Origin: Thermoplasmata archaeon | GTDB lineage: Archaea > Thermoplasmatota > Thermoplasmata > UBA10834 | NCBI GenBank assembly: GCA_038852315.1 | Contig: JAWCKF010000007.1 | Coordinates: 1,148 to 65,147, forward strand | Reading direction: 5' to 3' | Length of the DNA: 64,000 bases | In this document: positions 34,886 to 54,006 of the stretch, piece after piece | How the letters are laid out: each line of letters starts with the position of its first letter | How positions within the stretch are numbered: the stretch's first letter is position 1 | Translations under genes and position numbers: made by a program | Notes under the pieces: model-generated | What the model was told of the DNA's origin: nothing | What the model saw: only the letters and a program-made list of their open reading frames with translations | Databases searched by the model: none

Positions 34886-34940
34886 TCCTGCTAGGGTCTG
34901 GCCAAAGTCTTATAACACACCCCTGCATACATTCGGGCCG

Positions 34941-35168: not shown

Positions 35169-35172
35169 TCCG

Positions 35173-35550
35173 ATGCACGAGTTCTCAGTAATGAGCCAGA
35201 TCGTCGACAGCATACTCGATGAGGCTGAGAAGCGGGGCGCTAAGAGGATCGAGCAGGTCGACCTCGATATAGGTGAGTACACGATGCTGGGAGAAGAGCA
35301 GCTGAGATTCGCCTACGAGGTCCTCTCGAAAGACACGATTCTAGAGGGCTCCACACTCCAGGTGGGCCGCATCCTTGGCAGGGTAAGATGCCCTTCGTGC
35401 GGATTCGAGGGGCCCGTCCCAGTGGCCACCGACGCACCCCATAGGATCACGCCTGTGCTGGAATGCCCCGTGTGCAGGTCGCCTTCGGAGATCATCGAGG
35501 GGAGGGAGTGCGTCATAAGGAGGGTCAGGATGGTGGTCCCGGATGTTTAG
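35173..35550 (+). CDS. hypA: hydrogenase nickel insertion protein HypA
   Basis: MHEFSVM N-terminus (MHE Ni site) and a CPSCG...CPVC zinc site. Confidence 0.9.
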   Translation: MHEFSVMSQIVDSILDEAEKRGAKRIEQVDLDIGEYTMLGEEQLRFAYEVLSKDTILEGSTLQVGRILGRVRCPSCGFEGPVPVATDAPHRITPVLECPVCRSPSEIIEGRECVIRRVRMVVPDV

Positions 35551-37103: not shown

Positions 37104-40100
37104 ATGAGCGAGAGCGAGGGCTTCGGCGCCGCCTTGGTGATAGGCGGGGGGCCCGCAGGGATGCAGGCCGCGCTCGACCTGGCGGATTCCGGCTTCAGGG
37201 TGTATCTCGTGGAGAGCACGCCGAGCATAGGCGGAAGGATGGCCCAGCTGGACAAGACATTCCCCACGAACGACTGCTCCCTCTGCATCCTGTCTCCGAA
37301 GATGGTCGCGGTCGGAAGGCACGAGAACATCACTCTCCTGACATATGCGGATGTGGAGGAGGTCCAGGGTTCAGCTGGCAGGTTCAAGGTAAGGGTGAGG
37401 AAGAAGGCCAGATACGTTCACGAGGACAAGTGCGTCGGCTGCGGGGCGTGCGCTGCCGTCTGCCCGTCGAAGGTGGACAGCGAATTCGAAATGGGCATGG
37501 CCAAGCGGAAGGCGATCTACGTGCCGTTCCCGCAGGCCGTACCGCTCAAGTACACCATTGACAGGGAGAGATGCCTGCACTTCAAGACAGGCAAGTGCCT
37601 TCTGTGCGTGAAGGCGTGCGAGGCCAAGGCAATCGACCACAAGATGGAAGACCAGATTCTGGACCTCGAGGTCGGTGCGATCATTGTGACCTCTGGCTAC
37701 GATCTCTTCGACGCTTCCAAGAAGGCCGAGTTTGGGCACGGCCTCTACAAGAACGTGGTCACGAACCTCGAGTTCGAGAGGATGTTGAGCGCATCAGGCC
37801 CGACCGAGGGGCACATACTGAGGCCGTCCGATGGAAAGCCGCCAAAGAGCATCGCGTTCATACAGTGCGTCGGCTCGAGGGACGTACAGACTGGCAACAC
37901 CTACTGCTCGTCATACTGCTGTATGGCGGCCATAAAGGAAGCTGTCATCGCAAAGGAGCACTCGCCCGACCTTGAAGCGACCATCTTCTTCATGGACACG
38001 CGGGCATTCGGAAAGGAGTTTGAGGAGTACCTCACCAGGGCCGAAAGCGAGTACGGCGTGATAGTCTACAGGAACAACCGTGTGCCGAAGGTCCAGGAGG
38101 ATCCCGGGACAGGCAACCTCATTCTCACATTCCATGCGGGCGCCGAGCTGCTCGAGGAGCACTACGACATGGTCGTGCTATCAGCGGGAGCACGCCCGCC
38201 CGCTTCGATGACTGACCTTGCCAGGAAGCTCGGAATTCAGCTCAATAAGTTCGGATTCGTCGACACGGACGATCTCACCCCCGTGGACACCTCAGTTCCC
38301 GGCATATACGTCTGCGGTGTCCTCTCGGGCCCGAAAGACATCCCCGATTCGATAGCTCAGGCGAGCGGTGCTGCGGGCAAGGTGGCCGCATCCCTGTCAA
38401 AGGAGCGGGGCAAGCTGGTGACCAAGAGAGAGTATCCGCCCGAGCGGGACGTTTCGAACGAGCCTCCCAGGATAGGGGTCTTCGTGTGCCACTGCGGGAT
38501 CAACATCGCGTCTGTGGTGGACGTCCAGAAGGTGGCCGAAGTCGCGTCGACGCTGCCCGGTGTGGTGCACTCCGAGAAGATGCTGTATGCCTGCTCGGAG
38601 GATGCTCAGAAGCGCATCAAGGAGATGGTGGAGAAGCACGGCTTGAACAGGGTCGTGGTCGCGAGCTGCACCCCTAGGACTCATGAACCGCTGTTCCAGA
38701 ACACGCTCAGGGAGGCCGGACTGAACAAGTACCTCTTCGACATGGCCAACATAAGGGACCAGTGCTCATGGGTGCACAGGAAGGAACCCGAGAAGGCGAC
38801 GGAGAAGGCGATCGACCTCGTGAGGATGGCTGTCGCGAAGGCGAGTTCTCTGGAGGCTCTGCCACAGCCGAGGATACCTGTCCATCCTGCAGCCCTCGTG
38901 CTCGGGGGCGGGTTGAGCGGACTCACAGCAGCGCTTGAGATCGCAGATGCTGGCTTCGAGGTTCACCTTGTGGAGAAGGACAAGGAACTGGGAGGCCATC
39001 TCAGGAACATCTATCACAAGACGCTCGCGGGCGTCGACCCTCAGGAGGTCCTGCGGGAGCTCAAGAAACGCGCATCCGAGCACCCGAAGATAAGGCTGCA
39101 CATGCAGGATGAGCTAGCAGAACTCAAGGGCTACATAGGCAACTTCGAGGCCACGCTCAAGAGCGGCGAGAAGGTGAAGCACGGGGCCATAGTCGTCGCC
39201 ACCGGCGGGGAGGAGTACGAGCCTGTCGAGTACCTGTACGGCCAGCACCCGCGGGTCATACGGCAGTCCCGGCTGAGCGAGATGCTTGCCAAGGGGGAGT
39301 TCAAGGCCAAGAACGTGGTCATAATCCAGTGCGTCGGCTCGAGAAACGGTGAACACCCTAACTGCTCTAGGATATGCTGCCAGACGGCAATGGCGAACGC
39401 CATCAGAATCAGGAAGGAACATCCCGATACCAACGTGTTCATACTCTTCAGGGACATCAGGACATATGGCTTCGCTGAGGAGCATTACAACGAGGCCGCC
39501 AGGCTCGGCGTCACGTTCCTCAGATACGATCCCTCGCAGCCCCCGCAGGTCTCCGCCGATGGGGACAAGCTCGTGGTCGAGGTGGAGGAGCAGTTCATCG
39601 AGGAGACCGCACGCATAGTGGCCGACTACCTTGTCCTCAACGCGGCGGTCCATCCGAACCCTGACAACCAGGAGCTACACAAGCTGCTCAAGGTGCCCCT
39701 GACGAGAGAAGGGTTCTTCCTCGAGGCGCACATGAAGCTGAGGCCGGTGGATTTCGCGACCGACGGAATATTCCTCTGCGGGCTCGCGCATTCGCCCAGG
39801 CTCATCGGGGAGAGCATCTCCCAGGCCCTCGCCGCTGCCGCGAGGGTTAACACCGTCCTGTCGAAACAGTATCTCGAGGCCGAGGGCGCCGTCTGCGTCG
39901 TCGACGAAGACAAGTGCATCGCGTGCGGCAGATGCGAGGAGGTCTGCAAGTACGGCGCTCCGAGGCTCGATGAGGTCAGACCTGGCGTTGTGAAGTCGCG
40001 CATAAACGAGGCGTTGTGCAAAGGATGCGGGTCGTGCGCCGTCGCCTGCTGCTCACACGCCATAACTGCGAGGCACTTCAGGTCAGACCAGATCGAGAGA

Positions 40101-40154
40101 ATGATCGAGGCGGCTCTGAGGCGGGAGCTCCCGAAGGAGGAGGCAAAGGCATGA
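37104..40154 (+). CDS. hdrA: fused double HdrA-like flavoprotein (QmoA-like N-module + canonical HdrA core), module 1
   Basis: Two dinucleotide-binding sites ([16 protein letters not shown] and [17 protein letters not shown]), [19 protein letters not shown], several CxxCxxCxxxCP ferredoxin motifs, the HdrA N-domain motif [14 protein letters not shown] and [23 protein letters not shown] precedes the start. Confidence 0.9.
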
Positions 40155-41749
40155 CCGATGCGACATTCGAGCCCAGGATAGTCGCGTTCTGCTGCAACTG
40201 GTGCTCGTATGCCGGTGCGGATCTGGCCGGCGTGTCGAGATTCCAGTATCCCCCCAACGCCCGGGTGATAAGGGTCATGTGCTCGGGCAGGGTGGAGCCG
40301 TACTTCGTGCTGAGGGCTCTTGAGCAGGGAGCGGACGGCGTCCTGATCACAGGATGCCACATAGGGGACTGCCACTACATATCCGGCAACGAGGAGGCCC
40401 AGAAGCGCATGGAGATGACCATGGAGCTTCTGGACAAGCTCGGGCTGGGAAGGGACAGGATGCGGCTAGAATGGATCTCCGCCTCCGAGGGTCAGAAGTT
40501 CGCGAAGACCATGACCGAGTTCACGGAGCAGATCCGCAAGCTGGGCCCAAACCCGCTCCAGCCCCAGCCACCGAAGAAGAAGGGGGACGCTTCGAAGCTG
40601 AAACAGGTCATGGACGAGATAATCGAGGGAACGGGTGCGTTCGACTGCGTCGAGTGTGGCAAGTGCACGACCGTTTGCCCAGTGGCCAAGTACAACACCG
40701 AGTTCGCGCCCAGGACAATCGTCCTCAAGGCCATGGAGGGAGTCGCTGAGAACGTCTCGTCGAACAAGGACGTGTGGACGTGCATAACATGCGAGCAGTG
40801 CAACTCGATGTGCCCCTACAAGGTCGATTACTCCGGCTTTATAAGGGACATGAGGAAAGAGGCCACCGGCTTCGGCAACGTCCCTACCTGCTCCCAGGGT
40901 GGGCTGATGCACTCGGTGATGAGGATACAGGCCAACAGCAGTCTAAGGCAGGACCGGTTGCGGTGGCTGACAGACGACCTGAGGATCTCGGACAAGGGTG
41001 ATGTGTTCTTCTTCGTGGGCTGTGTGACCTACTTCGACACAATATTCAGAGAGCGCAAGAACCTCTCCCTGGCTAGCATACCCCAGGCTGCAGTAAAGAT
41101 TATGAACAAGGGGGGTATTGTCCCCGTGGTCAGCAACGACGAGGTATGCTGCGGGCACGATCTCAACTGGACCGGGGACGAGTACAACCTCAGGAAGCTG
41201 ATGAAAAGGAACATCGAGTTGATACGCGCCTCCGGGGCCAAGAAGGTCGTGTTCTCATGCCCCGAATGCCTCAGGACCTTCAGTCTAGACTACCAGGACA
41301 TAATGGGGGACCTGGAGTTCGAGATGGTGCACATCTCGGAGCTGGTGGACGAGCTCGTCCAGGAGGGCAGGCTGAAGTTCAAGAGGGAGGCCCGGAAGCT
41401 CACCTTCCAGGACTCCTGCAGGCTCGGGAGACATCTCGGGACATACGACCCGCCCAGGAGCGCCCTGGCCGCGACGGGCGCTGCGGTTGTCGAGATGGAG
41501 AACACGAAGGACAAGGCACTGTGCTGCGGAGTGAGTGCGTGGGCCACATGCGACGAGATCTCCCGCAAGCTCCAGGTCGCGAGGCTGACGGAGGCGAAGC
41601 GCACGGGTGCCGAGTGCCTGATCACTGGGTGCTACAAGTGCCTGATACACCTGAGCTGCGTGCAGGAGAACAAGACCCAGGTGCCCAAGGAGCAGATCGA
41701 CATCCCGATAAAGGATCTCAGTGTCGTGTTGGCTGATTCGCTTGAGTAA
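40151..41749 (+). CDS. MvhD - HdrC - HdrB triple-domain fusion protein
   Basis: The MvhD domain has [13 protein letters not shown]...GCHIGDCHY. The HdrC-like 2x[4Fe-4S] region has [12 protein letters not shown] and [12 protein letters not shown]. Two HdrB-type CCG domains follow (FFFVGC...VCCGHD and FQDSC...LCCGVS...GCYKC). The start overlaps the hdrA stop (ATGA). Confidence 0.85.
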
Positions 41750-41772
41750 CGGACGGGAGGACTGAGGCAGAG

Positions 41773-42153
41773 ATGACAGACAAGGACCAGAAGGCGCCGC
41801 CGAAGGGTGAGGAGAGGTATCTGCTCGTCGAGCTGTCGTGCAAGGACCTCAAGTGCTCGCCCTGCACCTATCCGAACTGCCAGAGGTTCGTCAGGTCCGT
41901 TCCGAAGAAGAAGCCGTTCGAAACACGCATGACGAAGATGTTCGAGGTGAAGAAGCCGATATCGGCACCCGGCGACACGAGAGAGCGCATACTGCTGGTC
42001 GAATTGTCATGCAAGGACAAGAAGTGCTCGCCGTGCACCTATCCCAACTGCCAGAGGTTCGCGAAAATATCTGGCAAGGGAAAGGCGCCTTTCAAGGTCA
42101 AGGTCACTGAAGTCAAGGGCGACAGGGAGGTGCAGAGCCTCCTGAACAAGTGA
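41773..42153 (+). CDS. small Lys-rich protein with tandemly duplicated CX4CX2CX4C motif, no family recognised
   Basis: 126 aa. ERYLLVELSCKDLKCSPCTYPNCQRF (aa 14-39) is repeated as ERILLVELSCKDKKCSPCTYPNCQRF (aa 71-96). GAGG lies 5 nt upstream of the ATG. Codons are GC3-rich like the flanking hdr genes. The gene begins 23 nt after the previous gene. Confidence 0.65.
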   Translation: MTDKDQKAPPKGEERYLLVELSCKDLKCSPCTYPNCQRFVRSVPKKKPFETRMTKMFEVKKPISAPGDTRERILLVELSCKDKKCSPCTYPNCQRFAKISGKGKAPFKVKVTEVKGDREVQSLLNK

Positions 42154-42229
42154 CAACGACAAAACCCTTAGGAATGCTGCTCGAGGAGAATGATTGCGAG
42201 GGCACGAGGAACCGAGAGGAGGTCTGAGA

Positions 42230-43525
42230 ATGGAGAAGGCCGTGATGGTGATCGGGGGAGGCGTCGCCGGAATACAGGCGGCACTGGACCTGGCTGACAA
42301 GGGGATTATCGTCCACCTGGTCGAGAAGACTCCCAGCATAGGCGGGAGGATGGCGCAGCTGGACAAGACTTTCCCAACGAACGACTGCTCGATATGCATA
42401 CTTGCGCCGAAGATGGCGGACTGCTTCAGCCATCCCAACACGAACGTGATAACCTACGCCGAGGTCGTCGGAGTCGAGGGGAAGGCGGGTGCGTTCAAGG
42501 TCAAGGTACTGAAGAAGGCCAGATACGTCGACGAGTCGAAGTGCACGGGCTGCGGGGAGTGCCTCGAGAAGTGCCCGTCCAAGGTCCCGAACGAGTTCGA
42601 GATGGGGCTCTCCACGAGGAAGGCGATCTACATGCCTTTCATGCAGGCGGTCCCGAGAGTCATGACCATCGACAAGGACCACTGCCTGATGCTCACCAAG
42701 GGCAAGTGCGGCAACTGCAAGAAGGCCTGCAAGAGGGAGGCCATCAACTACGAGATGAAGGACCAGATACTGGAGATCGATGTCGGGGCGATCATCGTCG
42801 CGACGGGGTTCGATTCGTGGGACCCGTCCTCATCAACCGAGTACGGCTATGGCAGGTTCCCGAACGTCTTCACCGCACTCGAGTACGAGCGCATGATAAA
42901 CGCGGCAGGCCCGACGCACGGCCACATCGAGAGGAGGTCTGACAAGAAGCGCCCGCAGAAGATAGCGTTCATACAGTGCGTCGGATCGAGGAATCCGACC
43001 ACGGGTCATCCCTACTGCTGTGCCGTCTGCTGCATGCACTCCACCAAGGAGGCCATGCTGGCCAGGGAGCACCACGACGATATGGAGTCGACGATATTCT
43101 ACAAGGACATGCGCGCCTGCGCGAAGGGGTTCTGGGAATACGTCGAGCGAGCCAAGAGGGATTACGCGGTTAGGTACATCAACTCCGACGCGACCGTACA
43201 GGAGAATCCCGAGAACCACAACCCGATCGTAGTGTACGACGTGGGCGGACGGCAGATGTCGGAGGAGTTCGACATGGTCGTGCTCGCGACCACCCTCGTC
43301 CCGAGGAAGGAGACCCTGGAGCTGGCTAAGGTCCTGGGCCTCAAGGTGGACGAATTCGGCTTCCTCGAGTCCGCCGACCGGATACTCGACCTCGGCCGGA
43401 CGGTCGTGCCAGGCATCTACGTCGCGGGGTACTGCGCCGGCCCTGCTGACATCCCCGAGTCGGTCGCTCAGGGCTCGAGCGCGGCGGCGAAGGCGGTCGA
43501 GACGCTCGCTCAGGCGGGAGTGTGA
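42230..43525 (+). CDS. HdrA/QmoA-like flavoprotein (stand-alone N-module), module 2
   Basis: [35 protein letters not shown] and CTGCGECLEKCP, colinear with residues 1 to about 440 of the fused proteins. The ATG at 42230 is preceded by GGAGGT. Confidence 0.85.
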   Translation: MEKAVMVIGGGVAGIQAALDLADKGIIVHLVEKTPSIGGRMAQLDKTFPTNDCSICILAPKMADCFSHPNTNVITYAEVVGVEGKAGAFKVKVLKKARYVDESKCTGCGECLEKCPSKVPNEFEMGLSTRKAIYMPFMQAVPRVMTIDKDHCLMLTKGKCGNCKKACKREAINYEMKDQILEIDVGAIIVATGFDSWDPSSSTEYGYGRFPNVFTALEYERMINAAGPTHGHIERRSDKKRPQKIAFIQCVGSRNPTTGHPYCCAVCCMHSTKEAMLAREHHDDMESTIFYKDMRACAKGFWEYVERAKRDYAVRYINSDATVQENPENHNPIVVYDVGGRQMSEEFDMVVLATTLVPRKETLELAKVLGLKVDEFGFLESADRILDLGRTVVPGIYVAGYCAGPADIPESVAQGSSAAAKAVETLAQAGV

Positions 43526-43530
43526 TCTTG

Positions 43531-45396
43531 ATGGCGGAGAAGACGATCGACAAGAACGAGAAGCCGAGGATAGGCGTGTTCGTTTGCCACTGTGGCGCCA
43601 ACATAGGCGGGTTCGTGGATGTGCCGTCGGTCGCGGAGTACGCGAAGACGCTGCCTGATGTGGTGTACGCGACAGACAACCTGTACACCTGCGCCGAGGA
43701 CGGCCTTGCGAGCATCAGGGAAGGCATAAGGAAGCACAACCTCAACAGGGTCATCGTCGCGAGCTGCACCCCGAGGACCCATGCCCCGCTGTTCCAGGCG
43801 ACTTGCGAGTCTGCCGGGCTGAACAAGTACATGTTCACGTTCGTCAACATCAGGGAGCACTGCTCCTGGGTGCACATGAAGGAGAAGGAGCGGGCGACCA
43901 AGAAGGCCAAGGACCTCATCCGTATGGGCGTTGCCAGGGCGAGGCTGTTGGAGCCGCAGGTAGAGGCGAGGGTCGACGTCACGCCCGTGGGATTGGTCAT
44001 CGGGGGCGGCGTGTCAGGCATGACGGCAGCCCTGTCGCTGGCCAACATGGGGTTCCCAGTACACCTGGTCGAGCGCGAGAACGAGCTCGGCGGGTTCGTC
44101 AGGAACCTGAACAACCTCTATGTGACGGAGAAGAGCGCCGTCGAGACCATCAGGCCGCTCATCGAGAAGGTCACGTCCCACAAGAACATCACACTGCACC
44201 TGAACTCTCAGGTCAAGAGCGTCGAGGGGTTCATCGGCAACTACGATGTGGTCATAGGGACAAAGGGTGCTGAGGACACCAAGGTCAAGGTCGGGACGAT
44301 AATCGTCGCGACAGGGGCGCTGGAGTTCATGCCCGAGGGGCTGTACGGGTACAACCAGTACCCGAACGTCGTCACGCTGACGGAGTTCGAGATACTGTGC
44401 AAGAAGAAGACCTTGCCGAAGCTGAAGAGCGTGGCGTTCATACAGTGCGTCGGCTCGAGGGGTCAGGTGAAGTCGTACTGCTCGCGGATATGCTGCAACG
44501 TGGCGATCAAGAACGCCATCAACATAGTGGACAACTACGACAACATGCTCGGGCTGGCCGAGAGACAGGGCACTGTCGTGGAGAAGATACCGGTCGAGCA
44601 GAAGGCCACTGACGAGATACTCGAGAGGAGGCGCAGGAGGCGCGGAAGGGAGAGGGGCGAGGAGGCTGGCGCTGAGGAGGTCAAGCTCGGCCCCGCAGAG
44701 AAGATCGAGGTGACCGTGTTCAACAGGGACGTCATGGCATACGGCGTCGAGCACGAGCTGGCGTACAACAAGGCAAGGGAGAAGAGGGTCAAGTTCATCA
44801 GATACACTACGGACCACCTCCCGAAGGTCTACATGGAGGGCAACCAGCTGATGGTCGCCTACTTCCACGAGACCCTGAAGCTCGAGAGGACGATGCCCGT
44901 GGACATGGTCATCCTCTCGACGCCGCTAGTGCAGCAGACCGGAGCTGCGGAGCTGTCCCAGATGCTGAAGGTGCCGCTCGGACAGGAGGGGTTCTTCCTC
45001 GAGGCGCACGTGAAGCTCCGGCCAGTGGACTTCGCGACGGACGGCATCTATGTTTGCGGCACCTGCAGGGGGCCGGCCGACATAACCGAGTGCACCTACC
45101 AGGCCGCGGCGGCGGCTTCGAGGGCCGCGATACCCATGGCCAGGGGTTATGTGCAGGCTGAGGCGCTCACCTCGGTCGTGGACGAGAACAAGTGCACTGG
45201 CTGTGGCACGTGCATACAGGTCTGCCCGTACGGCGCCCTCAGGAAGAACGACAGGGGCTTCGCCGAAGTCATTGTCGCAGCGTGCAAGGGCTGTGGCTGC
45301 TGCGGCGCGACCTGCCCGGAGGGCGCGATCACCATGACGAACTACACGGACGCGCAGCTGCTCGCGGAGGCGAAGGCCGCGCTCGAGGAGGTGTGA
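43531..45396 (+). CDS. hdrA: HdrA core protein (stand-alone C-module), module 2, with a 55-aa charged insertion
   Basis: [50 protein letters not shown]...CSRICC and the C-terminal CTGCGTCIQVCP / CKGCGCCGATCP. The start could instead be GTG 43522, which overlaps the upstream stop. Confidence 0.85.
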   Translation: MAEKTIDKNEKPRIGVFVCHCGANIGGFVDVPSVAEYAKTLPDVVYATDNLYTCAEDGLASIREGIRKHNLNRVIVASCTPRTHAPLFQATCESAGLNKYMFTFVNIREHCSWVHMKEKERATKKAKDLIRMGVARARLLEPQVEARVDVTPVGLVIGGGVSGMTAALSLANMGFPVHLVERENELGGFVRNLNNLYVTEKSAVETIRPLIEKVTSHKNITLHLNSQVKSVEGFIGNYDVVIGTKGAEDTKVKVGTIIVATGALEFMPEGLYGYNQYPNVVTLTEFEILCKKKTLPKLKSVAFIQCVGSRGQVKSYCSRICCNVAIKNAINIVDNYDNMLGLAERQGTVVEKIPVEQKATDEILERRRRRRGRERGEEAGAEEVKLGPAEKIEVTVFNRDVMAYGVEHELAYNKAREKRVKFIRYTTDHLPKVYMEGNQLMVAYFHETLKLERTMPVDMVILSTPLVQQTGAAELSQMLKVPLGQEGFFLEAHVKLRPVDFATDGIYVCGTCRGPADITECTYQAAAAASRAAIPMARGYVQAEALTSVVDENKCTGCGTCIQVCPYGALRKNDRGFAEVIVAACKGCGCCGATCPEGAITMTNYTDAQLLAEAKAALEEV

Positions 45397-45399
45397 CCG

Positions 45400-46236
45400 A
45401 TGACGGAGGTCGCGCACACCCAGATGCTGGAGAAGAAGGAGCTCGAGAGCCCGGCGCAGAGCAAGGAGTGGGAGCCGAAGATAATCGGGTTCCTGTGCAA
45501 CTGGTGCTCGTACGCGGGCGCGGACCTGTGCGGTGTCAGCAGGTACCAGTACCCGACGAACATCAGGCCGGTCAGGGTCATGTGCTCCACCAGGATAAGC
45601 CCGCACCTCGTGCTGGAGCTGTTCGAGGCCGGGGCGGACGGTGTGCTCCTGGGAGGCTGCCACATAGGCGACTGTCACTACATCACGGGGAACTACTACA
45701 CGGAGAAGCGCGTCAGGCTGATGAAGAGGCTGCTCGAGGACGCGGGGATAGAGCCTGAGAGGCTCCGGCTGGAATGGGTCTCCGCCTCTGAGGGTGAGAA
45801 GTTCTCCAAGGTGGTCACGGAGTTCACGGAGCAGGTGAGGAGGCTCGGCCCGAGCAAGGTCAAGAAGGACCAGCTCGCCAAGGTGCGGGTGGCGGCGGCC
45901 GACGAAGCCTCTGAGACCTTCAGGTTGAAGGCGCTCGTGGGCAAGGAGCTGAACCTCGAGACCAAGGGGAACGTGTACAACAACAAGCTCGACAGGGCGG
46001 AGCTGGAGAAGCTCATCGATGCGGCCGCCAGGGACGAGTTCGAGAGGGCGCTCATACTCGAGCTGGCGAAGGAGAGGCCGCGGTCCGTCAAGGAGCTGGG
46101 GAAGATCATGCAGGTGCCCACGGACAAGGTCCTGAGACACATCGTCGTGCTGAGGCAGAAGAACCTCATCGCGATGGATCATCCGGAGGGCTTCACGCCG
46201 ACCTACAGGACGATAGTGATAGGGGGTGAGCAGTGA
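45400..46236 (+). CDS. MvhD-domain protein fused to a C-terminal winged-helix-like domain
   Basis: [12 protein letters not shown]...GCHIGDCHY is the MvhD domain. The C-terminal SVKELGKIMQVPTDKVLRHIVVLRQKNLI resembles an ArsR/TrmB-type wHTH. Confidence 0.8.
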   Translation: MTEVAHTQMLEKKELESPAQSKEWEPKIIGFLCNWCSYAGADLCGVSRYQYPTNIRPVRVMCSTRISPHLVLELFEAGADGVLLGGCHIGDCHYITGNYYTEKRVRLMKRLLEDAGIEPERLRLEWVSASEGEKFSKVVTEFTEQVRRLGPSKVKKDQLAKVRVAAADEASETFRLKALVGKELNLETKGNVYNNKLDRAELEKLIDAAARDEFERALILELAKERPRSVKELGKIMQVPTDKVLRHIVVLRQKNLIAMDHPEGFTPTYRTIVIGGEQ

Positions 46237-49200
46237 TGGCAGCGACCGACAAGATAGGCGCGGTCATGATAGTCGGTGGAGGGATATCCGGCATGCAGTC
46301 CGCGCTGGACCTGGCAGACTCCGGATACAAGGTGTACCTGATCGAGAAGCAGCCGAGCATAGGCGGGACCATGGCGCAGCTCGACAAGACCTTCCCAACG
46401 AACGACTGCGCCATGTGCATCATGGCGCCCAAGCTCGTGGCCACGGGCAGGCACCACAACATCGAGCTCATCACTAACGCCGAGGTCGCGATAGTCGACG
46501 GCGAGGCAGGGAACTTCAGCGTCACCGTGAAGCAGAAGGCCTTCAGAGTGGACCCGAAAAAGTGCACTGGCTGCGGCAGCTGCGCTCAGAAGTGCCCCAT
46601 CGAGACGACAAACGAGTACGACGAGCATACGAAGACCCGTAAGGCGATCTACGTCCGCTACCCGCAGGCCGTGCCGCTCGTGTACTCCATCGATCCCGAC
46701 AGGTGCATCGGGTGCGGCATATGCGCCGAGGAGTGCAAGGCCAAGGCCGTGGACTACGACCAGAAGGAGAAGGTGCTCGAGATCAAGGTCGGGTCGATCA
46801 TACTCTCCCCTGGGTTTGACGAGTTCAACGCTCGCCTGAAATCCGAGTACGGCTACGGCGTGTACAAGAACGTCGTGACGAGCATAGAGTTCGAGCGGAT
46901 ACTCTCCGCCACAGGGCCATACATGGGGACCGTTCTGAGGCCCTCGGACGGGGACATCCCTGAGAAGATAGCCTTCATACAGTGTGTCGGCTCCAGAGAC
47001 GAGCACTGTGGGAACGAGTACTGCTCGAGCGTGTGCTGCATGTATTCCATCAAGGAGGCTGTCATCGCCAAGGAGCACGGCGGGAACATCAAGCCATCGA
47101 TATTCTTCATGGACATGAGGGCCTTCGGCAAGGAGTTCGACGAGTACTACAGCCGCGCGGAGAAGGAGTACGGCGTCAGGTTCGTCCGCTCCAGGGTCGC
47201 GGCCATCAGCGAGGACCCGAGGACGAACGACCTGATAGTGAAGTACGTCGAGAACGGCGAGCCCAAGGAGGAGGTGTTCAACATGGTCGTGCTCGCGGTC
47301 GGGCTCAGGCCTCCTGCCGATGCCGAGGCCCTCAGCAGGATCATGAAGTTCAAGCTGAACGAGGACGGGTTCGCCTCGACGAGCGTGTTCGCCCCGGTGG
47401 AGACATCGAGGCCTGGGATATTCGTCAGCGGCGCGTTCTCCGCCCCGAAGGACATACCGATGACCGTCGCTGAGGCCTCAGGCGCCGCCGCGAAGGCAGG
47501 GACCGAGATAGCCGCTGCCAGGAACACCCTGGTCACGAAGAAGGAGTACCCGCCGGAGATCAACATCGAGGGGCAGGAGCCAAGGATAGGCGTGTTCGTG
47601 TGCCACTGTGGCATAAACATCGGGGGCGTGGTGAACGTGCCCGAGGTGATGGAGTACGCGAAGACCTTGCCCAACGTCGTTTACGCCGAGCAGAACCTGT
47701 ACACGTGCTCTCAGGACACCCAGGAGAAGATCAAGGAGAAGGTCAAGGAGCTGAAGCTGAACCGCGTGGTGGTCGCCAGCTGCACGCCGAGGACTCACGA
47801 GCCGCTGTTCCAGAACACCATCCGGGAGGCGGGGCTGAACGCCTACCTCTTCGAGATGGCGAACATAAGGGACCAGTGCTCCTGGATACACATGCACGAG
47901 CCGAAGGCCGCCACGAAGAAGGCCAAGGACCTCGTCAGGATGGCCGTCGCGAAGGCGCGTCTGCTCGAACCTCTGGAGAACCTGACGCTGAAGGTCAACC
48001 AGTCAGCGCTGGTGCTCGGCGGCGGCGTCAGCGGCATGACCGCCGCGCTCGAACTAGCAAGGCAGGGCTTCAAGGTGCACCTGGTCGAGAAGGAGAAGGA
48101 GCTAGGTGGCAACGCGAGGAAGCTGCACTTCCTCCCGTCCGGCGACGACCCGGTTGCCTTCGCCAAGCAGCTCGACAGGCAGGTGACCTCTAACCCGAAC
48201 ATAACGGTCTACACGGGGGCGAGGGTGAAGTCCATCGACGGCTATGTCGGGAACTTCAAGACGACCCTCGAGAGCGGGGAGCAGCTTGAGCACGGTGTGG
48301 TGATAGTCGCCATCGGTGGCGAGGAATACAAGCCGAACGGCGAGTACCTCTACGGGAAGAACAAGAACGTGATGACGCTGCTCGAGTTCAAGGAGAAGCT
48401 GTCGAGTGGCCAGGCGAAGGGACACGAGTACGTGTTCATCCAGTGTGTAGGCTCCCGCGAGGACAAGCATCCGAACTGCTCACGCGTCTGCTGCACGGGC
48501 ACGATGAGCGCAGCGAAGAAGATCAAGGAGCTGGACCCGAACGCGAAGGTCTACGTCCTGTACCGGGACATCAGGACCTACGGCTTCAGGGAGAAGTACT
48601 ACAAGGAGGCCGCGAACGCTGGCGTGAAGTTCATCAGGTTCGAGGACGACCAGAAGCCCAAGGTCGAGGAGAAGAACGGCAAACTCGAGGTGACCGTCGA
48701 GGATGAGGACACCGGAAAGCTCGTGGTCCTGAAGCCCGACTACCTCGTGCTGGCGGCCGGGACGCGCCCGCAGGCGGATGCGGAGAAGCTCGCGCCCATG
48801 CTGAAGGTGCCCATGACCAAGGAGGGCTTCTTCCTGGAGGCGCATATGAAGCTCAGGCCTGTTGACTTCGCGACGGAAGGGGTGTACCTCGCCGGCCTGG
48901 CGCACGGCCCTAAGTTCATCGACGAGAGCATAGCCCAGGCCCTCGCGGCCGTGTCGAGGGCCACCACGGTCCTGTCGAAGACCGAGCTCGAGGCCGAGGG
49001 CATAGTCGCGAGCGTGGACGAGAAGCTGTGCGACGGCTGTGGCATATGCGTGCCCACGTGCGAGTACAGGGCGCTGGAGATCGTGCCGAACAAGGAGGAC
49101 CCGAAGAAGAAGCTCGTCAGCGTCAACGTCGGGCTGTGCAAGGGCTGCGGAGCTTGCGTGGGCGCCTGCCCGGCTGGCGCGCTGACCCAGAAGGGCTTCA

Positions 49201-49274
49201 GGGACGCGCAGATCTACGCGATGATAGATGCCGCGCTCGAGGGCGAGACACCCAAGCAGGAGGTGAGGCAATGA
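46236..49274 (+). CDS. hdrA: fused double HdrA-like flavoprotein, module 3
   Basis: Colinear with 37104..40154 ([80 protein letters not shown]-terminal CDGCGICVPTCE / CKGCGACVGACP). The ATG overlaps the upstream TGA. A GTG at 46233 is the alternative start. Confidence 0.9.
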   Translation: MAATDKIGAVMIVGGGISGMQSALDLADSGYKVYLIEKQPSIGGTMAQLDKTFPTNDCAMCIMAPKLVATGRHHNIELITNAEVAIVDGEAGNFSVTVKQKAFRVDPKKCTGCGSCAQKCPIETTNEYDEHTKTRKAIYVRYPQAVPLVYSIDPDRCIGCGICAEECKAKAVDYDQKEKVLEIKVGSIILSPGFDEFNARLKSEYGYGVYKNVVTSIEFERILSATGPYMGTVLRPSDGDIPEKIAFIQCVGSRDEHCGNEYCSSVCCMYSIKEAVIAKEHGGNIKPSIFFMDMRAFGKEFDEYYSRAEKEYGVRFVRSRVAAISEDPRTNDLIVKYVENGEPKEEVFNMVVLAVGLRPPADAEALSRIMKFKLNEDGFASTSVFAPVETSRPGIFVSGAFSAPKDIPMTVAEASGAAAKAGTEIAAARNTLVTKKEYPPEINIEGQEPRIGVFVCHCGINIGGVVNVPEVMEYAKTLPNVVYAEQNLYTCSQDTQEKIKEKVKELKLNRVVVASCTPRTHEPLFQNTIREAGLNAYLFEMANIRDQCSWIHMHEPKAATKKAKDLVRMAVAKARLLEPLENLTLKVNQSALVLGGGVSGMTAALELARQGFKVHLVEKEKELGGNARKLHFLPSGDDPVAFAKQLDRQVTSNPNITVYTGARVKSIDGYVGNFKTTLESGEQLEHGVVIVAIGGEEYKPNGEYLYGKNKNVMTLLEFKEKLSSGQAKGHEYVFIQCVGSREDKHPNCSRVCCTGTMSAAKKIKELDPNAKVYVLYRDIRTYGFREKYYKEAANAGVKFIRFEDDQKPKVEEKNGKLEVTVEDEDTGKLVVLKPDYLVLAAGTRPQADAEKLAPMLKVPMTKEGFFLEAHMKLRPVDFATEGVYLAGLAHGPKFIDESIAQALAAVSRATTVLSKTELEAEGIVASVDEKLCDGCGICVPTCEYRALEIVPNKEDPKKKLVSVNVGLCKGCGACVGACPAGALTQKGFRDAQIYAMIDAALEGETPKQEVRQ

Positions 49275-49732
49275 GCTCAGAGGCCGCGCACAAGTCCGAT
49301 GCCGGACACGGGGAGACGGGCGAGTGGGAGCCTAAGATACTGGTGTTCTGCTGCAACTGGTGCTCGTACGCCGGGGCGGACCTGGCTGGCGTGAGCAGGT
49401 TGCAGATGCCCCCGTACTTCCGCGTGATAAGGGTCATGTGCTCCGCCAGGGTCGACCCCGAGTTCGTCATGCGGGCGTTCCAGAAGGGTGCCGACGGCGT
49501 GCTCGTCGCGGGGTGCCACCCGGCAGACTGCCACTACATAGGCGGCAACTACAGGACGCGCAGGAGGATGGCGCTCATGAAGATGCTGATACAGCAGTTC
49601 GGGTTCGACCCCGACAGGCTGAGGCTCGAATGGATATCGGCAGGCGAGGGCGAGAAGTTCCAGAAGACCATAATCGAGTTCACCAACACCATCAAGGAGC
49701 TGGGCCCATCGCCCATCAAGGGAGGTGCGTGA
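49271..49732 (+). CDS. mvhD: F420-non-reducing hydrogenase iron-sulfur subunit D (MvhD)
   Basis: [18 protein letters not shown]...GCHPADCHY, 153 aa. It has an ATGA overlap with hdrA and lies directly upstream of mvhG/mvhA. Confidence 0.9.
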   Translation: MSSEAAHKSDAGHGETGEWEPKILVFCCNWCSYAGADLAGVSRLQMPPYFRVIRVMCSARVDPEFVMRAFQKGADGVLVAGCHPADCHYIGGNYRTRRRMALMKMLIQQFGFDPDRLRLEWISAGEGEKFQKTIIEFTNTIKELGPSPIKGGA

Positions 49733-49733
49733 G

Positions 49734-50750
49734 ATGGCCGAGAAGATAAAGATCGCGCAGTACTGGGGCGCCGGGTGCGGAGGGTGCGACGTCGCGCTCC
49801 TGGACATAGACGCGAAGATACTCGATGTGCACGCGATAGCCGATGTCGTGTTCTGGCCGATCGGCTTCGACGGCAAGCTCCACGAGATAGAGAACATGCC
49901 CGACAAGTCGATCACCGTGAGCTTCTACAACGGCGCGATAAGGAACTCCGAGAACGAGCACATAGCCAAGGTCCTGAGGCAGAAGTCGGTCATCATGATA
50001 GCCTTCGGGTCGTGTGCGTGCTACGGAGGCACGCCCGGGCTCGCGAACGTGACCAACAGACAGGAGGTCTTCGAGACGGTGTACAAGCAGACGCCTTCCA
50101 CCGACAACCCCGAGGGCGTGTTGCCCCAGCCGCGGGTGAAGGTCAAGGAGGGAGAGCTCGAGCTGCCCGAGTTCTGGGACACCGTCAAGACGCTCGACGA
50201 GGTCGTCGACGTCGACTACTTCATGCCGGGCTGTCCGCCCACGGTCAACCTGATCGCGATGGCGGTCGATGCGGTCGTCGCGCACGTCACGAAGGGCGCA
50301 CCGCTGCCCCCGAAGGGGACGGTCATCGCGTCCGACAAGACGCTCTGCGACGAGTGCAAGAGGGAGAGGGTCGAGAAGGGCAGGAGGATCGAGAGGATCT
50401 ACCAGGCCTACGAGATAAAGCCCGACCCGAAGAAGTGTCTGCTCGACCAGGGCATAATATGCCTGGGGCCGGCCACGAGGGCCGGGTGCGGCGCGATGTG
50501 CCCGAACGCGCAGATGCCCTGCAGGGGCTGCATGGGCCCGACGAAGGCCGTGACGGACCAGGGCGCGAGCATGCTGAGCGCGGTGTCGTCCCTGCTCAAC
50601 ATCACGGATTCGGAGTCAAAGTTAAGTGAGGAGCAGATAATGGAACTCATGATGCAGGTGAAGGACCCGTTGGGCACGTTCTACGCGTTCTCCCTGCCGA
50701 AGTCGCCTCTGAAGAGGACTGTGACGGAGCGCAAGAAGAGGAAGGGGTGA
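49734..50750 (+). CDS. mvhG: [NiFe] hydrogenase small subunit, Mvh/F420-non-reducing type (MvhG)
   Basis: IAQYWGAGCGGCDVALLD N-terminal cluster motif and further Cys clusters (GSCACYGG, PGCPP, CDEC, CLGPATRAGCGAMCP...CRGC). RBS GGAGGTG precedes the start. Confidence 0.9.
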   Translation: MAEKIKIAQYWGAGCGGCDVALLDIDAKILDVHAIADVVFWPIGFDGKLHEIENMPDKSITVSFYNGAIRNSENEHIAKVLRQKSVIMIAFGSCACYGGTPGLANVTNRQEVFETVYKQTPSTDNPEGVLPQPRVKVKEGELELPEFWDTVKTLDEVVDVDYFMPGCPPTVNLIAMAVDAVVAHVTKGAPLPPKGTVIASDKTLCDECKRERVEKGRRIERIYQAYEIKPDPKKCLLDQGIICLGPATRAGCGAMCPNAQMPCRGCMGPTKAVTDQGASMLSAVSSLLNITDSESKLSEEQIMELMMQVKDPLGTFYAFSLPKSPLKRTVTERKKRKG

Positions 50751-50756
50751 GCACCA

Positions 50757-52271
50757 GTGACAGGACCAGTGATCAACGACACGCCGACGAAGACAAAGGA
50801 GAAGAGGATAACGATAGACCCCATCACCAGGCTGGAGGGCCACGGGAAGATAGAGATCTTCCTGAACGATGCGGGCGATGTGGAGAACGCCTACCTCCAG
50901 ATACCGGAGCTGAGGGGGTTCGAGAGGTTCTGCATAGGCAGGCACGTGATGGAGCTGCCCGTGCTCACGAACAGACTCTGCGGCGTCTGTCCAGCGGCGC
51001 ACCACATGGCAAGCACGAAGGCGCTCGACGCGGTGTTCGACGCCGAGCCCACGCCCACGGCGAAGAAGCTGCGGGAGCTGTTCTACATGGGCCAGTACAC
51101 GCACAGCCACATAGCCCACTTCTACGCGCTCGCTGCTCCGGACTTCGTCCTTGGCCCGGCCGCTCCCGCTAACAAGAGGAACGTCCTCGGCGTCGTGGAC
51201 GCCGTAGGCGTTTCAATAGGTGCGGAGGTCATAAAGCACAGGTCCTACGGGCAGAAGATCCAGGAGATCGTCGGCGGGAGGGCCACGCACCCCGTGTTCG
51301 GGTTGCCAGGGGGCGTCTCGAAGCAGATAAGCGAGGAGGAGCGGGCACAGATGGAGGCCATGGCGAAGAGCTGCGTCGAGTTCGGCAAGTTCACCATCAA
51401 GCTCTTCCACGACGTGGTGCTCGGCAACAAGGACTACATGAACATCGTGCTCAACAAGGACGCGTACTACCTCGAGACCTACTACATGGGCATGGTCGAC
51501 AAGAACAACAAGAGCAACTTCTACGACGGCGACGTGCGCGTGGTGGACCAGGCCGGCAAGGAGGTCGTGAGGTTCAAGCCGAGCGAATACCTGGACGTCA
51601 TCGCCGAGCATGTGGAGCCATGGACCTACATGAAGATGCCCTACCTGAAGAAGGTTGGCTGGAAGGGGTTCGTGGACGGCGCCTCGAGCGGCATATACAG
51701 GGTCGGTCCGCTGGGCAGGATCAACGTCTGCACGGGCTACACCACGCCACTGGCGCAGAAGGAGTATGAGGTCTTCAAGAAGACGATGAAGGACCTGGGC
51801 GTCACGGGGCCCGCACACCACACCATGGCGTACCACTGGGCGCGCGTCATAGAGCTGCAGTACGCGGCCGAGCGCATGCTGGAGCTCGCGAGCGACAGGA
51901 GCATAACCAGCGACGACATCAGGGGGCCGTACAAGCAGCCGAAGGAGGGCGTGGGCATAGTCGAGGCCCCGAGGGGCACGCTGATACACCACTACGCCTC
52001 CGACAAGGACGGCCTGTGCACGAAGATAAACATGATCGTCGCGACGACGAACAACTACGCCGCGATCAACACCAGCGTAAGGCAGGCCGCGAAGGCGCTG
52101 ATAAAGGGCGGGCACGTCTCGCCAGGTCTCCTGAACAAGGTGGAGATGGCCTTCAGGTGCTACGACCCGTGCAACTCCTGCGGCACGCACTCCCTGAGCG
52201 GCGGGCCGGCGCTGGAGATAGTCGTGCGCAGGAAGGACGGGTCTGTGCTCACGACCCAGAGAAACTTCTGA
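50757..52271 (+). CDS. mvhA: [NiFe] hydrogenase large subunit, Mvh type (MvhA)
   Basis: N-terminal RLCGVCPAAHH (RxCGxCxxxH) and C-terminal DPCNSCGTH (DPCxxCxxH), followed by a cleavable extension. GTG start. Confidence 0.9.
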   Translation: MTGPVINDTPTKTKEKRITIDPITRLEGHGKIEIFLNDAGDVENAYLQIPELRGFERFCIGRHVMELPVLTNRLCGVCPAAHHMASTKALDAVFDAEPTPTAKKLRELFYMGQYTHSHIAHFYALAAPDFVLGPAAPANKRNVLGVVDAVGVSIGAEVIKHRSYGQKIQEIVGGRATHPVFGLPGGVSKQISEEERAQMEAMAKSCVEFGKFTIKLFHDVVLGNKDYMNIVLNKDAYYLETYYMGMVDKNNKSNFYDGDVRVVDQAGKEVVRFKPSEYLDVIAEHVEPWTYMKMPYLKKVGWKGFVDGASSGIYRVGPLGRINVCTGYTTPLAQKEYEVFKKTMKDLGVTGPAHHTMAYHWARVIELQYAAERMLELASDRSITSDDIRGPYKQPKEGVGIVEAPRGTLIHHYASDKDGLCTKINMIVATTNNYAAINTSVRQAAKALIKGGHVSPGLLNKVEMAFRCYDPCNSCGTHSLSGGPALEIVVRRKDGSVLTTQRNF

Positions 52272-52341
52272 AGGCGTGCCGGGGGCCAGGGCCCTTCGAG
52301 TGTCTTTCCAGTCACGCTTAACTTCCCAGAGTCAGTTATCC

Positions 52342-52818
52342 ATGACCGTGAAGGCGCTGGTGCTGGGCGTGGGCAACCCTATAAAGTCCGACGACGGCGT
52401 CGGTGTCCGCGTAGCCCGCTTGCTGAAAGAAAGGAGCATCCCGGGCGTCGATGTCGAGGAGCTCCCTGCCAGCGGACTCGAGCTCCTGGACTGCGTGCTC
52501 GGATACGACCTCGTGGTCGTGATCGATGCCATCCAGACCAAGGGCGGGCGTCCCGGGGACTTCTACGAGCTCGGAGAGGATGACTTCGAGAGGACTGTGC
52601 ACGGGGCGTCCCCTCACGGGGTGAACATAGCCACCGCTTTGGCTCTTGGCAGGAGGATCGTGCCAGAGAGGATGCCCAAGAAGGTGGTGTTCGTCGCGGT
52701 GGAGGCTTCGGACCTCGTCAACGTGAGCGAGAAGCTCACGCCCGATGTCGAGGCCCAGGTGCCGAGAATAGTGGATTTCGTGGAGGACAAGGTCCGCGCC
52801 CTGCTCTCGAAAGGATGA
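52342..52818 (+). CDS. hydrogenase maturation endopeptidase (HycI/FrhD/HyaD family)
   Basis: LVLGVGNPIKSDDGVGVRVA ... VVVIDA ... SPHG are the conserved Asp/His metal-ligand contexts of this protease family. Confidence 0.85.
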   Translation: MTVKALVLGVGNPIKSDDGVGVRVARLLKERSIPGVDVEELPASGLELLDCVLGYDLVVVIDAIQTKGGRPGDFYELGEDDFERTVHGASPHGVNIATALALGRRIVPERMPKKVVFVAVEASDLVNVSEKLTPDVEAQVPRIVDFVEDKVRALLSKG

Positions 52819-53892: not shown

Positions 53893-54006
53893 GTGCAGCC
53901 CCGGCCGCCCATTCGTAGCCAATGGCCGGTAATAACGCTTTTGGTGGCCAGGAACGGGCGCCATGGTGGCGGAAGGGATAGATAGGGATCTGTGGTTCCC
54001 GAATTC

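Follow-up and report, generated by a model that had tools for sequence, protein, structure and literature searches.

We analyzed a 64,000-nucleotide (nt) stretch of contig JAWCKF010000007.1 from a Thermoplasmata archaeon (hereafter, the window), in which open reading frame (ORF) listing and translation place an operon of twelve tightly packed plus-strand genes at 37104-52818. Its products include three HdrA modules that are paralogs of one another, two of them fused and the third split, and three proteins with an MvhD domain; the remaining genes code for MvhG, MvhA, a protease for maturation and a small cysteine-rich protein. We consider it probable that this is a conserved Mvh-type hydrogenase/HdrA electron-bifurcation operon built from type II, pseudo-dimeric HdrA units, a reading that draws on sequence comparison and on analogy with solved structures. 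The operon is a real, conserved variant, three-module, hydrogenase-fed and with new fusions, of a known kind of machinery. An initial annotation of this DNA had described twelve packed plus-strand genes with overlaps or gaps of at most 76 nt, and this outline held. Pfam and NCBIfam also bore out its domain list (two FAD regions, Fer4, FlpD/MvhD, CCG, MvhG, MvhA and the protease), the sequence motifs it quoted are all present, and its picture of three HdrA paralogs, of three MvhD adaptors that differ in their tails, and of a single hydrogenase and a single CCG protein was supported.

The central question was what the HdrA proteins are. Both proteins of ~1015 amino acids (aa) contain two FAD regions of the thioredoxin reductase (TrxR) type and several Fer4 clusters (Pfam, NCBIfam), and the motifs GxGxxG and C-x(n)-C-x3-CC occur twice in each of them but once each in the two separate genes of module 2. 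The N-terminal half (residues 10-433) corresponds to positions 142-562 of the NCBIfam HdrA2 profile and aligns to residues 154-569 of 8rvu_a. This N unit consists of a TrxR-type FAD domain, the Cys194/197 pair, an inserted 2x[4Fe-4S] ferredoxin and the cysteines of the HA4 cluster, and is without the N-terminal cluster domain and without the C-terminal ferredoxin; in module 1, Cys58/Cys61 are the equivalents of HdrA Cys194/197 and Lys278 that of K409. The label "QmoA-like", given to this half in the initial annotation, was rejected, as the best NCBIfam match is the HdrA class without its terminal domains and takes in the inserted ferredoxin. The C-terminal half aligns to residues 2-234 and 375-651 of 5odc_A only. 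It holds an N-terminal cluster domain (with the motifs VCHCG, YACS, ASCTPR and QCSW in module 1), the second FAD site, the HA4 cysteines and a C-terminal 2x[4Fe-4S] ferredoxin; it has neither the inserted ferredoxin nor Cys194/Cys197 and is therefore not the complete HdrA core that it had been taken for.

We checked individual columns in a MAFFT alignment against an HdrA reference reconstructed from HMMER output. All three N units have Cys194/Cys197 (DCxxC), which the three C units lack, and the HA4 cysteines are present in all six units, in agreement with the motif table. The domains are distributed over two unlike units, and every module has two flavin domains but a single copy of each accessory element. 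No five-domain HdrA is encoded in the operon by either the alignment or the column check, and the NCBIfam HdrA/HdrA2 scores fall under the curated cut-offs (1032 versus 1100; 798 versus 1400). We found instead two TrxR-type FAD domains with HA4, complementary accessory elements, and K409/E356 in the unit that carries Cys197. On sequence grounds, the ~1015-aa protein is a collinear "type II" HdrA, that is, a covalent asymmetric pseudo-dimer. The contrast drawn in the initial annotation, between one FAD-containing HdrA per protomer in methanogens and two flavin sites here, was thus misleading: canonical HdrA is a homodimer, and the fused protein would be its covalently joined counterpart.

The Lys/Glu hallmark separates the units further. 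Equivalents of K409 and E356 are found in all three N units. At these positions the C unit of module 1 has Ala and Ser (the former being Ala764) and that of module 3 has Ser and Lys, whereas the C unit of module 2 retains both residues. The same distinction was seen in orthologs, where module 1-type proteins are all "KA" and module 3-type proteins "KT" or "KS"; N units in all loci have the Lys, and the split C genes keep it in 21 of 22 cases. The initial annotation had named a loss of key cofactor-binding residues in two of the three modules as a sign of decay; all cysteine ligands and FAD motifs are intact in every module (3/3) according to the motif table, and what modules 1 and 3 have lost is the C-unit hallmark.

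The three modules share one plan. The fused HdrA of module 3 is collinear with that of module 1, and the N unit of module 2 has the same FAD, DCxxC, inserted ferredoxin, HA4 and Lys/Glu hallmarks as the other two N units. In module 2 the break falls within the linker by which modules 1 and 3 join their two units, as the initial annotation had proposed. The paralogs are 48-54% identical in their N halves, 42-54% in their C halves and 59-62% in their MvhD domains. We note that the C unit of module 2 has a 53-aa Arg/Glu-rich insertion at 44542-44700 (..ERRRRRRGRERGEE..), which is conserved in three Thermoplasmata orthologs (L001, L032 and L033) and absent from Bathyarchaeia orthologs.

The three proteins with an FlpD/MvhD domain (Pfam, E 1e-54 to 1e-57) differ in what is attached to it. 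The protein behind module 1 joins a [2Fe-2S] MvhD domain to a 2x[4Fe-4S] HdrC-like part and an HdrB-type double CCG (Pfam FlpD 9.5e-57, CCG 8.5e-21 in two stretches; PDB 5odc_D 188 bits, 5odc_C 45 bits), and its cysteine map contains two CxxCxxCxxxC and two C..CCG..CxxC motifs. The protein between modules 2 and 3 consists of MvhD (residues ~28-150), a long helix and an ArsR/SmtB-type winged helix-turn-helix (wHTH; ~200-270), with Pfam matches to FlpD (4.1e-54) and, weakly, to HTH_20 (0.0076), and also a weak HTH_metalloreg match. Its AlphaFold2 (AF2) model reached a predicted local distance difference test (pLDDT) score of 67.8, and a Foldseek search of the PDB returned 5odh_D, at 59% identity, for the MvhD part only. 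An exhaustive search with the 120-aa tail gave 160 cluster representatives; a profile built from 33 of these homologs matches wHTH regulators in the PDB (1uly_A 9e-8, HlyU 5e-6), in line with the "winged-helix-like" description in the initial annotation. MvhD was present in seven of eight larger proteins with the tail that we checked, and the tail also occurs as a stand-alone short protein. Among P0485, P0498, P0474, P0390 and P0420 it was found inside giant fusions of several types: HdrA-MvhD-tail-ferredoxin-GltD/NfnB-like (1255 and 1737 aa), MvhD-tail-GltD-like and HdrA-MvhD-tail. By Rosetta-stone reasoning, these fusions hint that the tail may couple MvhD to NAD(P)H-type input modules. The third protein is plain MvhD without a tail, directly upstream of mvhG, and is most likely the hydrogenase-to-HdrA adaptor; the order [N-C][D]..[G][A] is conserved across phyla (N and C are the HdrA units, D is MvhD, G and A are MvhG and MvhA). 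We also observed a difference beside the MvhD cluster motif: the MvhD-wHTH protein reads FLCNWC...ADLCG, invariant in 26 orthologs, and the MvhD domains at 40151-40570 and 49271-49732 read FCCNWC...ADLAG, so that an extra Cys appears to have shifted.

The small gene between the MvhD-HdrCB fusion and module 2, counted in the initial annotation but left undescribed there, encodes a conserved tandem-repeat protein with two copies of ELSCKDxKCxPCTYPNCQR and eight invariant cysteines. The protein is lineage-restricted: it has 213 homologs, all unnamed, and the few with an organism label are from Thermoplasmata. Weak matches to the Fe-S family PF04060 were found in 22 of 30 members and to the zinc-binding IBR family in 20 of 30. 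Its position is fixed in the loci that carry the gene, and the ratio of nonsynonymous to synonymous substitution rates (dN/dS) is 0.12-0.27. An AF2 model from 30 homologs was too low in confidence for use (mean pLDDT 37.6). We regard it as a putative metal- or Fe-S-binding partner, which may serve this system as its own carrier or substrate.

The hydrogenase is of the Mvh type, with large and small subunits and an MvhD adaptor recognized through VhuA, VhuG, FlpD and the NiFe ligands. MvhA carries the motifs RxCGxCxxxH and DPCxxCxxH and a C-terminal extension for protease cleavage. Its PDB matches were 7t2r_D (389 bits) and 5odc_F (385 bits); 7t2r is presumably the bifurcating/confurcating HydABCSL of Acetomicrobium mobile.

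To place these parts in a working scheme, we used two structures as analogs, the crystal structure of HdrA and the cryo-electron microscopy (cryo-EM) structure of the class II benzoyl-CoA reductase of Geobacter metallireducens (preprint 10.64898/2026.04.10.717634). In that complex BamE is a fused HdrA dimer, with the bifurcating FAD in its first TrxR domain (Lys280; Cys59-Cys62) and a structural FAD in its second (Gln768); BamF is an MvhD adaptor whose winged HTH docks BamI, and BamD is an HdrBC fusion that leads to electron-transferring flavoprotein (ETF) (10.64898/2026.04.10.717634). In our scheme the N and C units would pack like an HdrA dimer with one arm pruned, a Cys of the N unit completing the cluster of the N-terminal domain of the C unit. 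The bifurcating flavin would be the N-unit FAD with the Lys/Glu hallmark; the C-unit FAD of modules 1 and 3 would be structural, and module 2 has the hallmark in both units. Electrons from H2 would pass from MvhA through MvhG and plain MvhD and then, by way of the C-terminal ferredoxin, reach the module 3 flavin. Of the two branches, the low-potential one would exit via the N-terminal cluster and then the inserted ferredoxin, with ferredoxin or perhaps the small 8-Cys protein as its recipient, and the high-potential one would run over HA4 to the HdrC-HdrB part of the fusion behind module 1. That part, which has both non-cubane CCG motifs, would reduce a disulfide or another high-potential acceptor. 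MvhD-wHTH would be the adaptor onto which one more partner docks, comparable to BamF with BamI, and not a DNA-binding regulator. Since the second site of modules 1 and 3 lacks the Lys409/Glu356 equivalents, matching the non-bifurcating second FAD of BamE, three or four bifurcating flavins are to be expected in the operon by this analogy, rather than six.

We surveyed one genome per species and found at least 593 loci that encode a relative of the fused protein; all window proteins were mapped onto the best 79 of these. The order [hypF][hypA][hypD]..[N-C][D-CB][small][N][C][D-wHTH][N-C][D] was found in L001, L003, L004, L005, L032, L039 and L049, and in L002 up to the contig end, with variants of the full layout in L033, L051 and L060. 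The whole layout is conserved in about ten Thermoplasmata metagenome-assembled genomes (MAGs). Five further loci (L036, L040, L044, L052 and L063) have the downstream half, from [N][C] or [C] onward, with the small gene in L036 and L052 only; they continue as [D-wHTH][N-C][D]([w])[G] and then [A][P], except that L052 stops at the contig edge, and [<hypE] follows in two cases. Bathyarchaeia share a cassette [N][C][D-wHTH][N-C][D][hdrC][hdrB][mvhG][mvhA] (L023 and others), which argues that split module 2 and fused module 3 are old, distinct paralogs. In Bathyarchaeota BA2 a fused HdrA is followed by separate mvhD, hdrC, hdrB, mvhG and mvhA genes in the order of the fusion, which shows that the MvhD-HdrC-HdrB protein arose from neighboring genes of a single complex and mirrors an ancestral order. 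Across genomes and phyla, the orthologs of each HdrA paralog form a separate group, and the split N genes of other phyla are closest to the module 2 paralog in 31 of 35 cases. A recent fission of module 2 was considered and rejected, given that split N/C genes of Bathyarchaeia and other lineages are closest to module 2 and that the cassette [N][C][D-w][N-C][D] crosses phyla. In the fetched loci, the Cys197 unit precedes the N-terminal domain in 99 of 99 large homologs with both motifs. All eight genes tested against three orthologous loci are under purifying selection (dN/dS 0.07-0.28).

Some loci depart from this pattern in ways that we record separately. Several relatives (L003 at 5914-9954; L004, L005, L006, L032, L039, L051 and L060) have an extra canonical-type hdrA (697 aa), hdrB (305 aa) and mvhD between hypD and module 1; no remnant of this set was found in the 469-nt gap at 36635-37103 of the window. 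Genomes differ widely in how many tandem modules they have: a MAG labelled Methanomassiliicoccales (L037, CP070739.1, 4800-21400) has four consecutive [MvhD-wHTH][HdrA] units and a final MvhD on one strand, three units being fused and one having N and C as separate genes, and L041, L058 and L070 have two. Four contigs are labelled Patescibacteria (L025), Krumholzibacteriaceae (L068), Pseudomonadota (L064) and "uncultured bacterium" (L062). The first two have a two-module cassette of the Bathyarchaeia type, [N][C][D-w][N-C][D]..[G][A][P], and in L025 there are hyp genes close to it; the other two have [N-C][D]-type modules only. These cases suggest either mis-binned archaeal contigs or horizontal transfer.

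We weighed several other explanations of the operon. That every HdrA unit has two working flavins, giving three double-flavin units and six sites in an undescribed arrangement, is quite unlikely in our view. Both GxGxxG FAD motifs and both HA4 clusters are indeed intact in all units, module 2 has the hallmark in both of its units, and a 2025 survey of HdrA allows two bifurcations per type II protein; but the C units of modules 1 and 3 lack K409/E356, a loss conserved in their orthologs, the second FAD of BamE lies off the branching point, and the single N-terminal cluster, inserted ferredoxin and C-terminal ferredoxin per unit leave one complete low-potential route. The word "undescribed" in the initial annotation holds for the three-module operon, which we found in no paper, and fails for the protein type, which has been described (anaerobic methanotrophic archaea [ANME], Moorella, type II HdrA, BamE). 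Decay of two of the three modules as duplicates is hardly credible: the paralogs are only 42-54% identical and two C units have lost the hallmark, yet the intact cysteine ligands and FAD motifs, together with a dN/dS of 0.07-0.19 in every HdrA gene against the three orthologous loci, refute it, and the separate ortholog groups across phyla speak against it as well. It is also very unlikely that MvhD-wHTH is a redox-sensing transcription factor that autoregulates the operon instead of an electron-transfer adaptor. Its tail profile does match ArsR/SmtB DNA-binding regulators, with the weak HTH_20 and HTH_metalloreg matches in addition, but the gene lies mid-operon and is translationally coupled to the next HdrA, and the wHTH of BamF contacts BamI in the cryo-EM structure. 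The tail moreover sits behind MvhD and inside large enzymes (MvhD to GltD-type, or after HdrA-MvhD), including the HdrA-MvhD-tail-GltD/NfnB-type fusions, which argues for a docking role over DNA binding.

Two alternatives concern how the modules are used and deserve more weight. The three HdrA cores may be merely co-transcribed with the hydrogenase, each with a partner encoded elsewhere (MetFV-, FdhB- or NfnB/GltD-type); we treat this as possible, though not favored. Homologs of the fused HdrA lie beside metVF (L076), hdrCB with mvhGA (Bathyarchaeia), Molybdop-FdhB (methane-metabolizing archaea) and Bam genes (Geobacter), some other proteins join the wHTH tail to NAD(P)H modules of the GltD-like kind, and the number of tandem units varies, up to the four [D-w][N-C] of L037. 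Tight packing of twelve genes and a strict order in about ten MAGs favor a shared assembly or stoichiometry instead, and genes for partners of the MetFV, FdhB or NfnB/GltD type were not found in the window. More doubtful is a system that works mainly in reverse: in a member of the Thermoplasmata that lives by fermentation and breaks down peptides, it would form H2 by confurcating electrons of reduced ferredoxin and of a mid/high-potential donor, either a thiol or NAD(P)H. Related non-methanogenic Thermoplasmata are predicted amino-acid fermenters that make reduced ferredoxin, it has been proposed that in Bathyarchaeota the HdrA-GltD clusters that include mvhADG are confurcating or H2-producing, and the best PDB match of MvhA is a large subunit of a non-MvhA [NiFe] hydrogenase, marginally ahead of 5odc_F. 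However, sequence fixes no direction, and canonical Mvh-Hdr takes up H2.

The type II electron-bifurcation reading that we prefer has its own difficulties. Lys is kept in both units in 27 of 63 fused homologs from other phyla, and the 2025 survey reads such a pair as two possible bifurcation sites. The packing and the rule of one bifurcating flavin per fused unit are carried over by analogy, with the BamE preprint and the residue hallmarks as sources. Gene order in Bathyarchaeia, with MvhD-wHTH ahead of the fused HdrA and plain MvhD behind it, makes the pairing of MvhD with HdrA ambiguous, and one hydrogenase and one CCG protein serving three modules raise a question of stoichiometry and wiring. 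Since BamD passes electrons to ETF, the CCG motifs are no proof of disulfide reduction.

If the three HdrA units, three MvhD proteins, one hydrogenase and one HdrCB formed a single hetero-oligomeric particle of complementary parts, with the lineage-specific 8-Cys protein as its dedicated carrier of electrons or thiols, which we think unlikely, module 3 would bring a hydrogenase without CCG and module 1 CCG, fused to its MvhD, without a hydrogenase; module 2, which has neither, would contribute a pair of flavins with the hallmark and the wHTH adaptor for docking. The wiring between the modules would in that case be parallel or serial, as a bifurcation cascade, comparable to the coupled modules of class II benzoyl-CoA reductase and yet distinct from them. 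In anaerobic energy conservation more generally, flavin-based bifurcation of electrons by HdrA has a central place, and the structures so far are those of canonical homodimeric HdrA and, very recently, BamE only. The operon does not overturn current understanding; it offers a compact, strongly conserved natural case in which fused and split asymmetric HdrA occur next to each other, H2 is the defined input and the MvhD adaptors are of three kinds. The candidate partners to which it points are the fusion with HdrCB, the adaptor with wHTH and the small Cys-rich protein. One probable bifurcating flavin per unit and differing outputs would alter how "MvhADG/HdrABC present" is read in metabolic models.

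The coordinates of the operon genes and of the flanking maturation genes are given in Table 1. Junctions within the operon are overlaps of 1 or 4 nt or else gaps of 1-76 nt; the MvhD-HdrC-HdrB gene starts 4 nt before the end of module 1, and the stop of the MvhD-wHTH gene overlaps the start of module 3. A purine-rich, GGAGG-like Shine-Dalgarno motif lies a few nt upstream of 10 of the 11 starts checked, the exception being the protease, whose true start is probably the ATG at 52342. Together, the Shine-Dalgarno motifs and gene overlaps indicate polycistronic expression. Upstream of 37104 there are weak TATA-like strings only; scans for sigma-70 promoters and intrinsic terminators stayed at or below shuffle expectation, with models that are not applicable to an archaeon. 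A search of the whole window with Rfam returned one tRNA and nothing within the operon. The fused protein of module 1 is identical (100%) to the NCBI entry "MAG: FAD-dependent oxidoreductase [Thermoplasmata archaeon]" and has hundreds of metagenome relatives of ~1011 aa at 64-86% identity, the named sources being Thermoplasmata/Thermoplasmatota MAGs. The G+C content of the window is about 59-62%.

Table 1. Positions of the operon genes, the HdrA units and the flanking maturation genes in the window
Feature	Position	Strand	Evidence
hypF, hypA, hypD (maturation)	32588..36634	+	Pfam
Module 1 fused HdrA, 1016 aa	37104-40154	+	ORF listing, translation
Module 1 N unit	37104..38423	+	NCBIfam HdrA2, 8rvu_a alignment, motif table, K409/E356 columns
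Module 1 C unit	38424..40154	+	5odc_A alignment, motif table, K409/E356 columns
MvhD-HdrC-HdrB triple fusion	40151-41749	+	Pfam, PDB matches, Cys map
Small 8-Cys repeat protein, 126 aa	41773-42153	+	Homologs, invariant Cys
Module 2 N unit, separate gene	42230-43525	+	Pfam, NCBIfam, motif table, K409/E356 columns
Module 2 C unit, separate gene	43531-45396	+	NCBIfam, motif table, K409/E356 columns
MvhD-wHTH protein	45400-46236	+	Pfam, AF2/Foldseek, tail profile
Module 3 fused HdrA, 1012 aa	46236-49274	+	Pfam, NCBIfam, motif table
Plain MvhD, about 153 aa	49271-49732	+	FlpD 2.1e-56
MvhG-type [NiFe] hydrogenase small subunit	49734-50750	+	Oxidored_q6; VhuG 1.8e-67
MvhA-type [NiFe] hydrogenase large subunit	50757-52271	+	NiFeSe_Hases; VhuA 4e-125; PDB matches
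Hydrogenase maturation endopeptidase	52276-52818	+	HycI; TIGR00072 3.2e-30 from residue 28
hypE-like gene (AIR synthase family)	52843..53964	-	AIRS, AIRS_C

The hypF-hypA-hypD flank is conserved in L001-L006, and the gap of 469 nt between hypD and module 1 is non-coding. At the other end, the hypE-like gene converges on the operon and is found in the same place in L040 and L063. A scan of 29 window ORFs that lie outside the operon turned up no mcr or coenzyme M/coenzyme B genes, as had been said in the initial annotation. Apart from the flanking hyp genes, the other 25 window ORFs scanned include a MobA-like transferase, a PEP-utilizing enzyme, a STAND ATPase, transporters, aminotransferases and a PAS/GAF histidine kinase, with nothing tied to methanogenesis or thiol cofactors. 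The kinase is a 1084-aa, multi-PAS/GAF protein encoded on the minus strand at 55943-59197, 3 kb downstream of the operon, and could conceivably be a redox- or gas-sensing regulator of the hydrogenase cluster. The tRNA match (62071-62173, plus strand) is 103 nt long, longer than standard, and possibly contains an intron; its overlap with the 5' end of ORF 61083-62174 on the minus strand casts doubt on the start called for that ORF.

Parts of this system have counterparts in several known ones. Relative to methanogen MvhADG-HdrABC (5ODC, 8RVU, 7BKB), the operon has MvhA, MvhG, MvhD and HdrC- and HdrB-type parts, and the FAD, HA4, N-terminal cluster, inserted and C-terminal ferredoxin elements of HdrA, with scores of 710-729 bits for HdrA, 188 bits for MvhD and 385 bits for MvhA. 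It differs in that there is no five-domain HdrA homodimer, the elements being spread over two unlike units, in that three HdrA modules share one hydrogenase and one HdrCB, and in that mcr and coenzyme M/B genes are missing among the window ORFs scanned, so that CoM-S-S-CoB is at most a candidate substrate.

QmoABC of sulfate reducers is another system in which two unlike HdrA-related flavoproteins cooperate, one of them joined to an MvhD-like domain. In contrast to QmoABC, the best NCBIfam matches here are HdrA2/HdrA, the N unit holds an inserted di-cluster ferredoxin, and the operon has no QmoC-type membrane subunit; a qmoC match covers only the Fer4 part of HdrC (3.2e-10, 40 bits against a cut-off of 300).

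Tandem and fused HdrAs with complementary domains were described in ANME by Chadwick et al. 2022, who also recognized the HdrA of Moorella MetFV-HdrABC-MvhD as being of the fused kind (PMC9012536 and PMC12054007 are the type II HdrA/ANME papers). Fusions of HdrA to HdrA were listed in a 2024 survey, which counted as many as six copies in an archaeal assembly. The 2025 survey named them "type II HdrA", gave K409/E356 as the hallmark of the bifurcating flavin and stated that the class has no biochemistry. Surveys of Thermoplasmata record merely "HdrABC/MvhADG", a preprint on HdrA evolution (10.1101/2024.09.26.615249) has nothing on fusions, and we found no paper that dissects a three-module, hydrogenase-linked operon.

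The ANME and methanogen type II HdrAs, which comprise the HdrA3-4 fusions and the HdrA5/6 and 12/13 tandem pairs (PMC9012536, PMC12054007), share with the proteins described here two TrxR domains and a complementary distribution of the N-terminal domain, the C-terminal ferredoxin and Cys197. They likewise occur as split and fused versions of the same pair and have MvhD and HdrBC/HdrD-like neighbors. Their partners, however, are FdhB and a Molybdop protein, or there is no clear input, where we find MvhAG, and our host belongs to the Thermoplasmata, with no evidence of methane metabolism. For ANME HdrA3/4, Chadwick et al. word the unit with the N-terminal domain as coming first, whereas the Cys197 unit is first in all 99 homologs above, the metVF-linked one included, and, by its residue numbers, in BamE; either the ANME proteins are the other permutation or that wording is reversed. 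The Moorella-type MetFV-HdrABC-MvhD system (hdrCBA-mvhD-metVF) is a biochemically studied complex, to which the family is tied by the metVF-linked locus of Desulfofundulus thermosubterraneus (L076): there a fused N-C HdrA of ~1000 aa, at about 52-54% identity, has an HdrCB-like CCG protein before it and MvhD after it. The differences are that metF and metV are absent here, a hydrogenase replacing the methylene-tetrahydrofolate reductase partner, and that multiple modules are present.

At the domain level, and by description, BamDEF shares with the operon a fused HdrA, an MvhD-plus-wHTH adaptor and an HdrC-HdrB fusion. The operon has three HdrA units where BamDEF has one, its MvhD is fused to HdrCB, and it has no selenocysteine. 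The tungsten BamBC and the NADH/ferredoxin BamGHI have no equivalent (no AOR-family or NuoEFG-like genes were found in the operon or among the window ORFs scanned), and the input is an Mvh-type [NiFe] hydrogenase. Nevertheless, Cys58/61, Lys278 and Ala764 of the window protein stand against Cys59/62, Lys280 and Gln768 of BamE, as the preprint numbers them, and these near-equal residue positions, together with the same order of units, make the fused HdrA of the window collinear with BamE.

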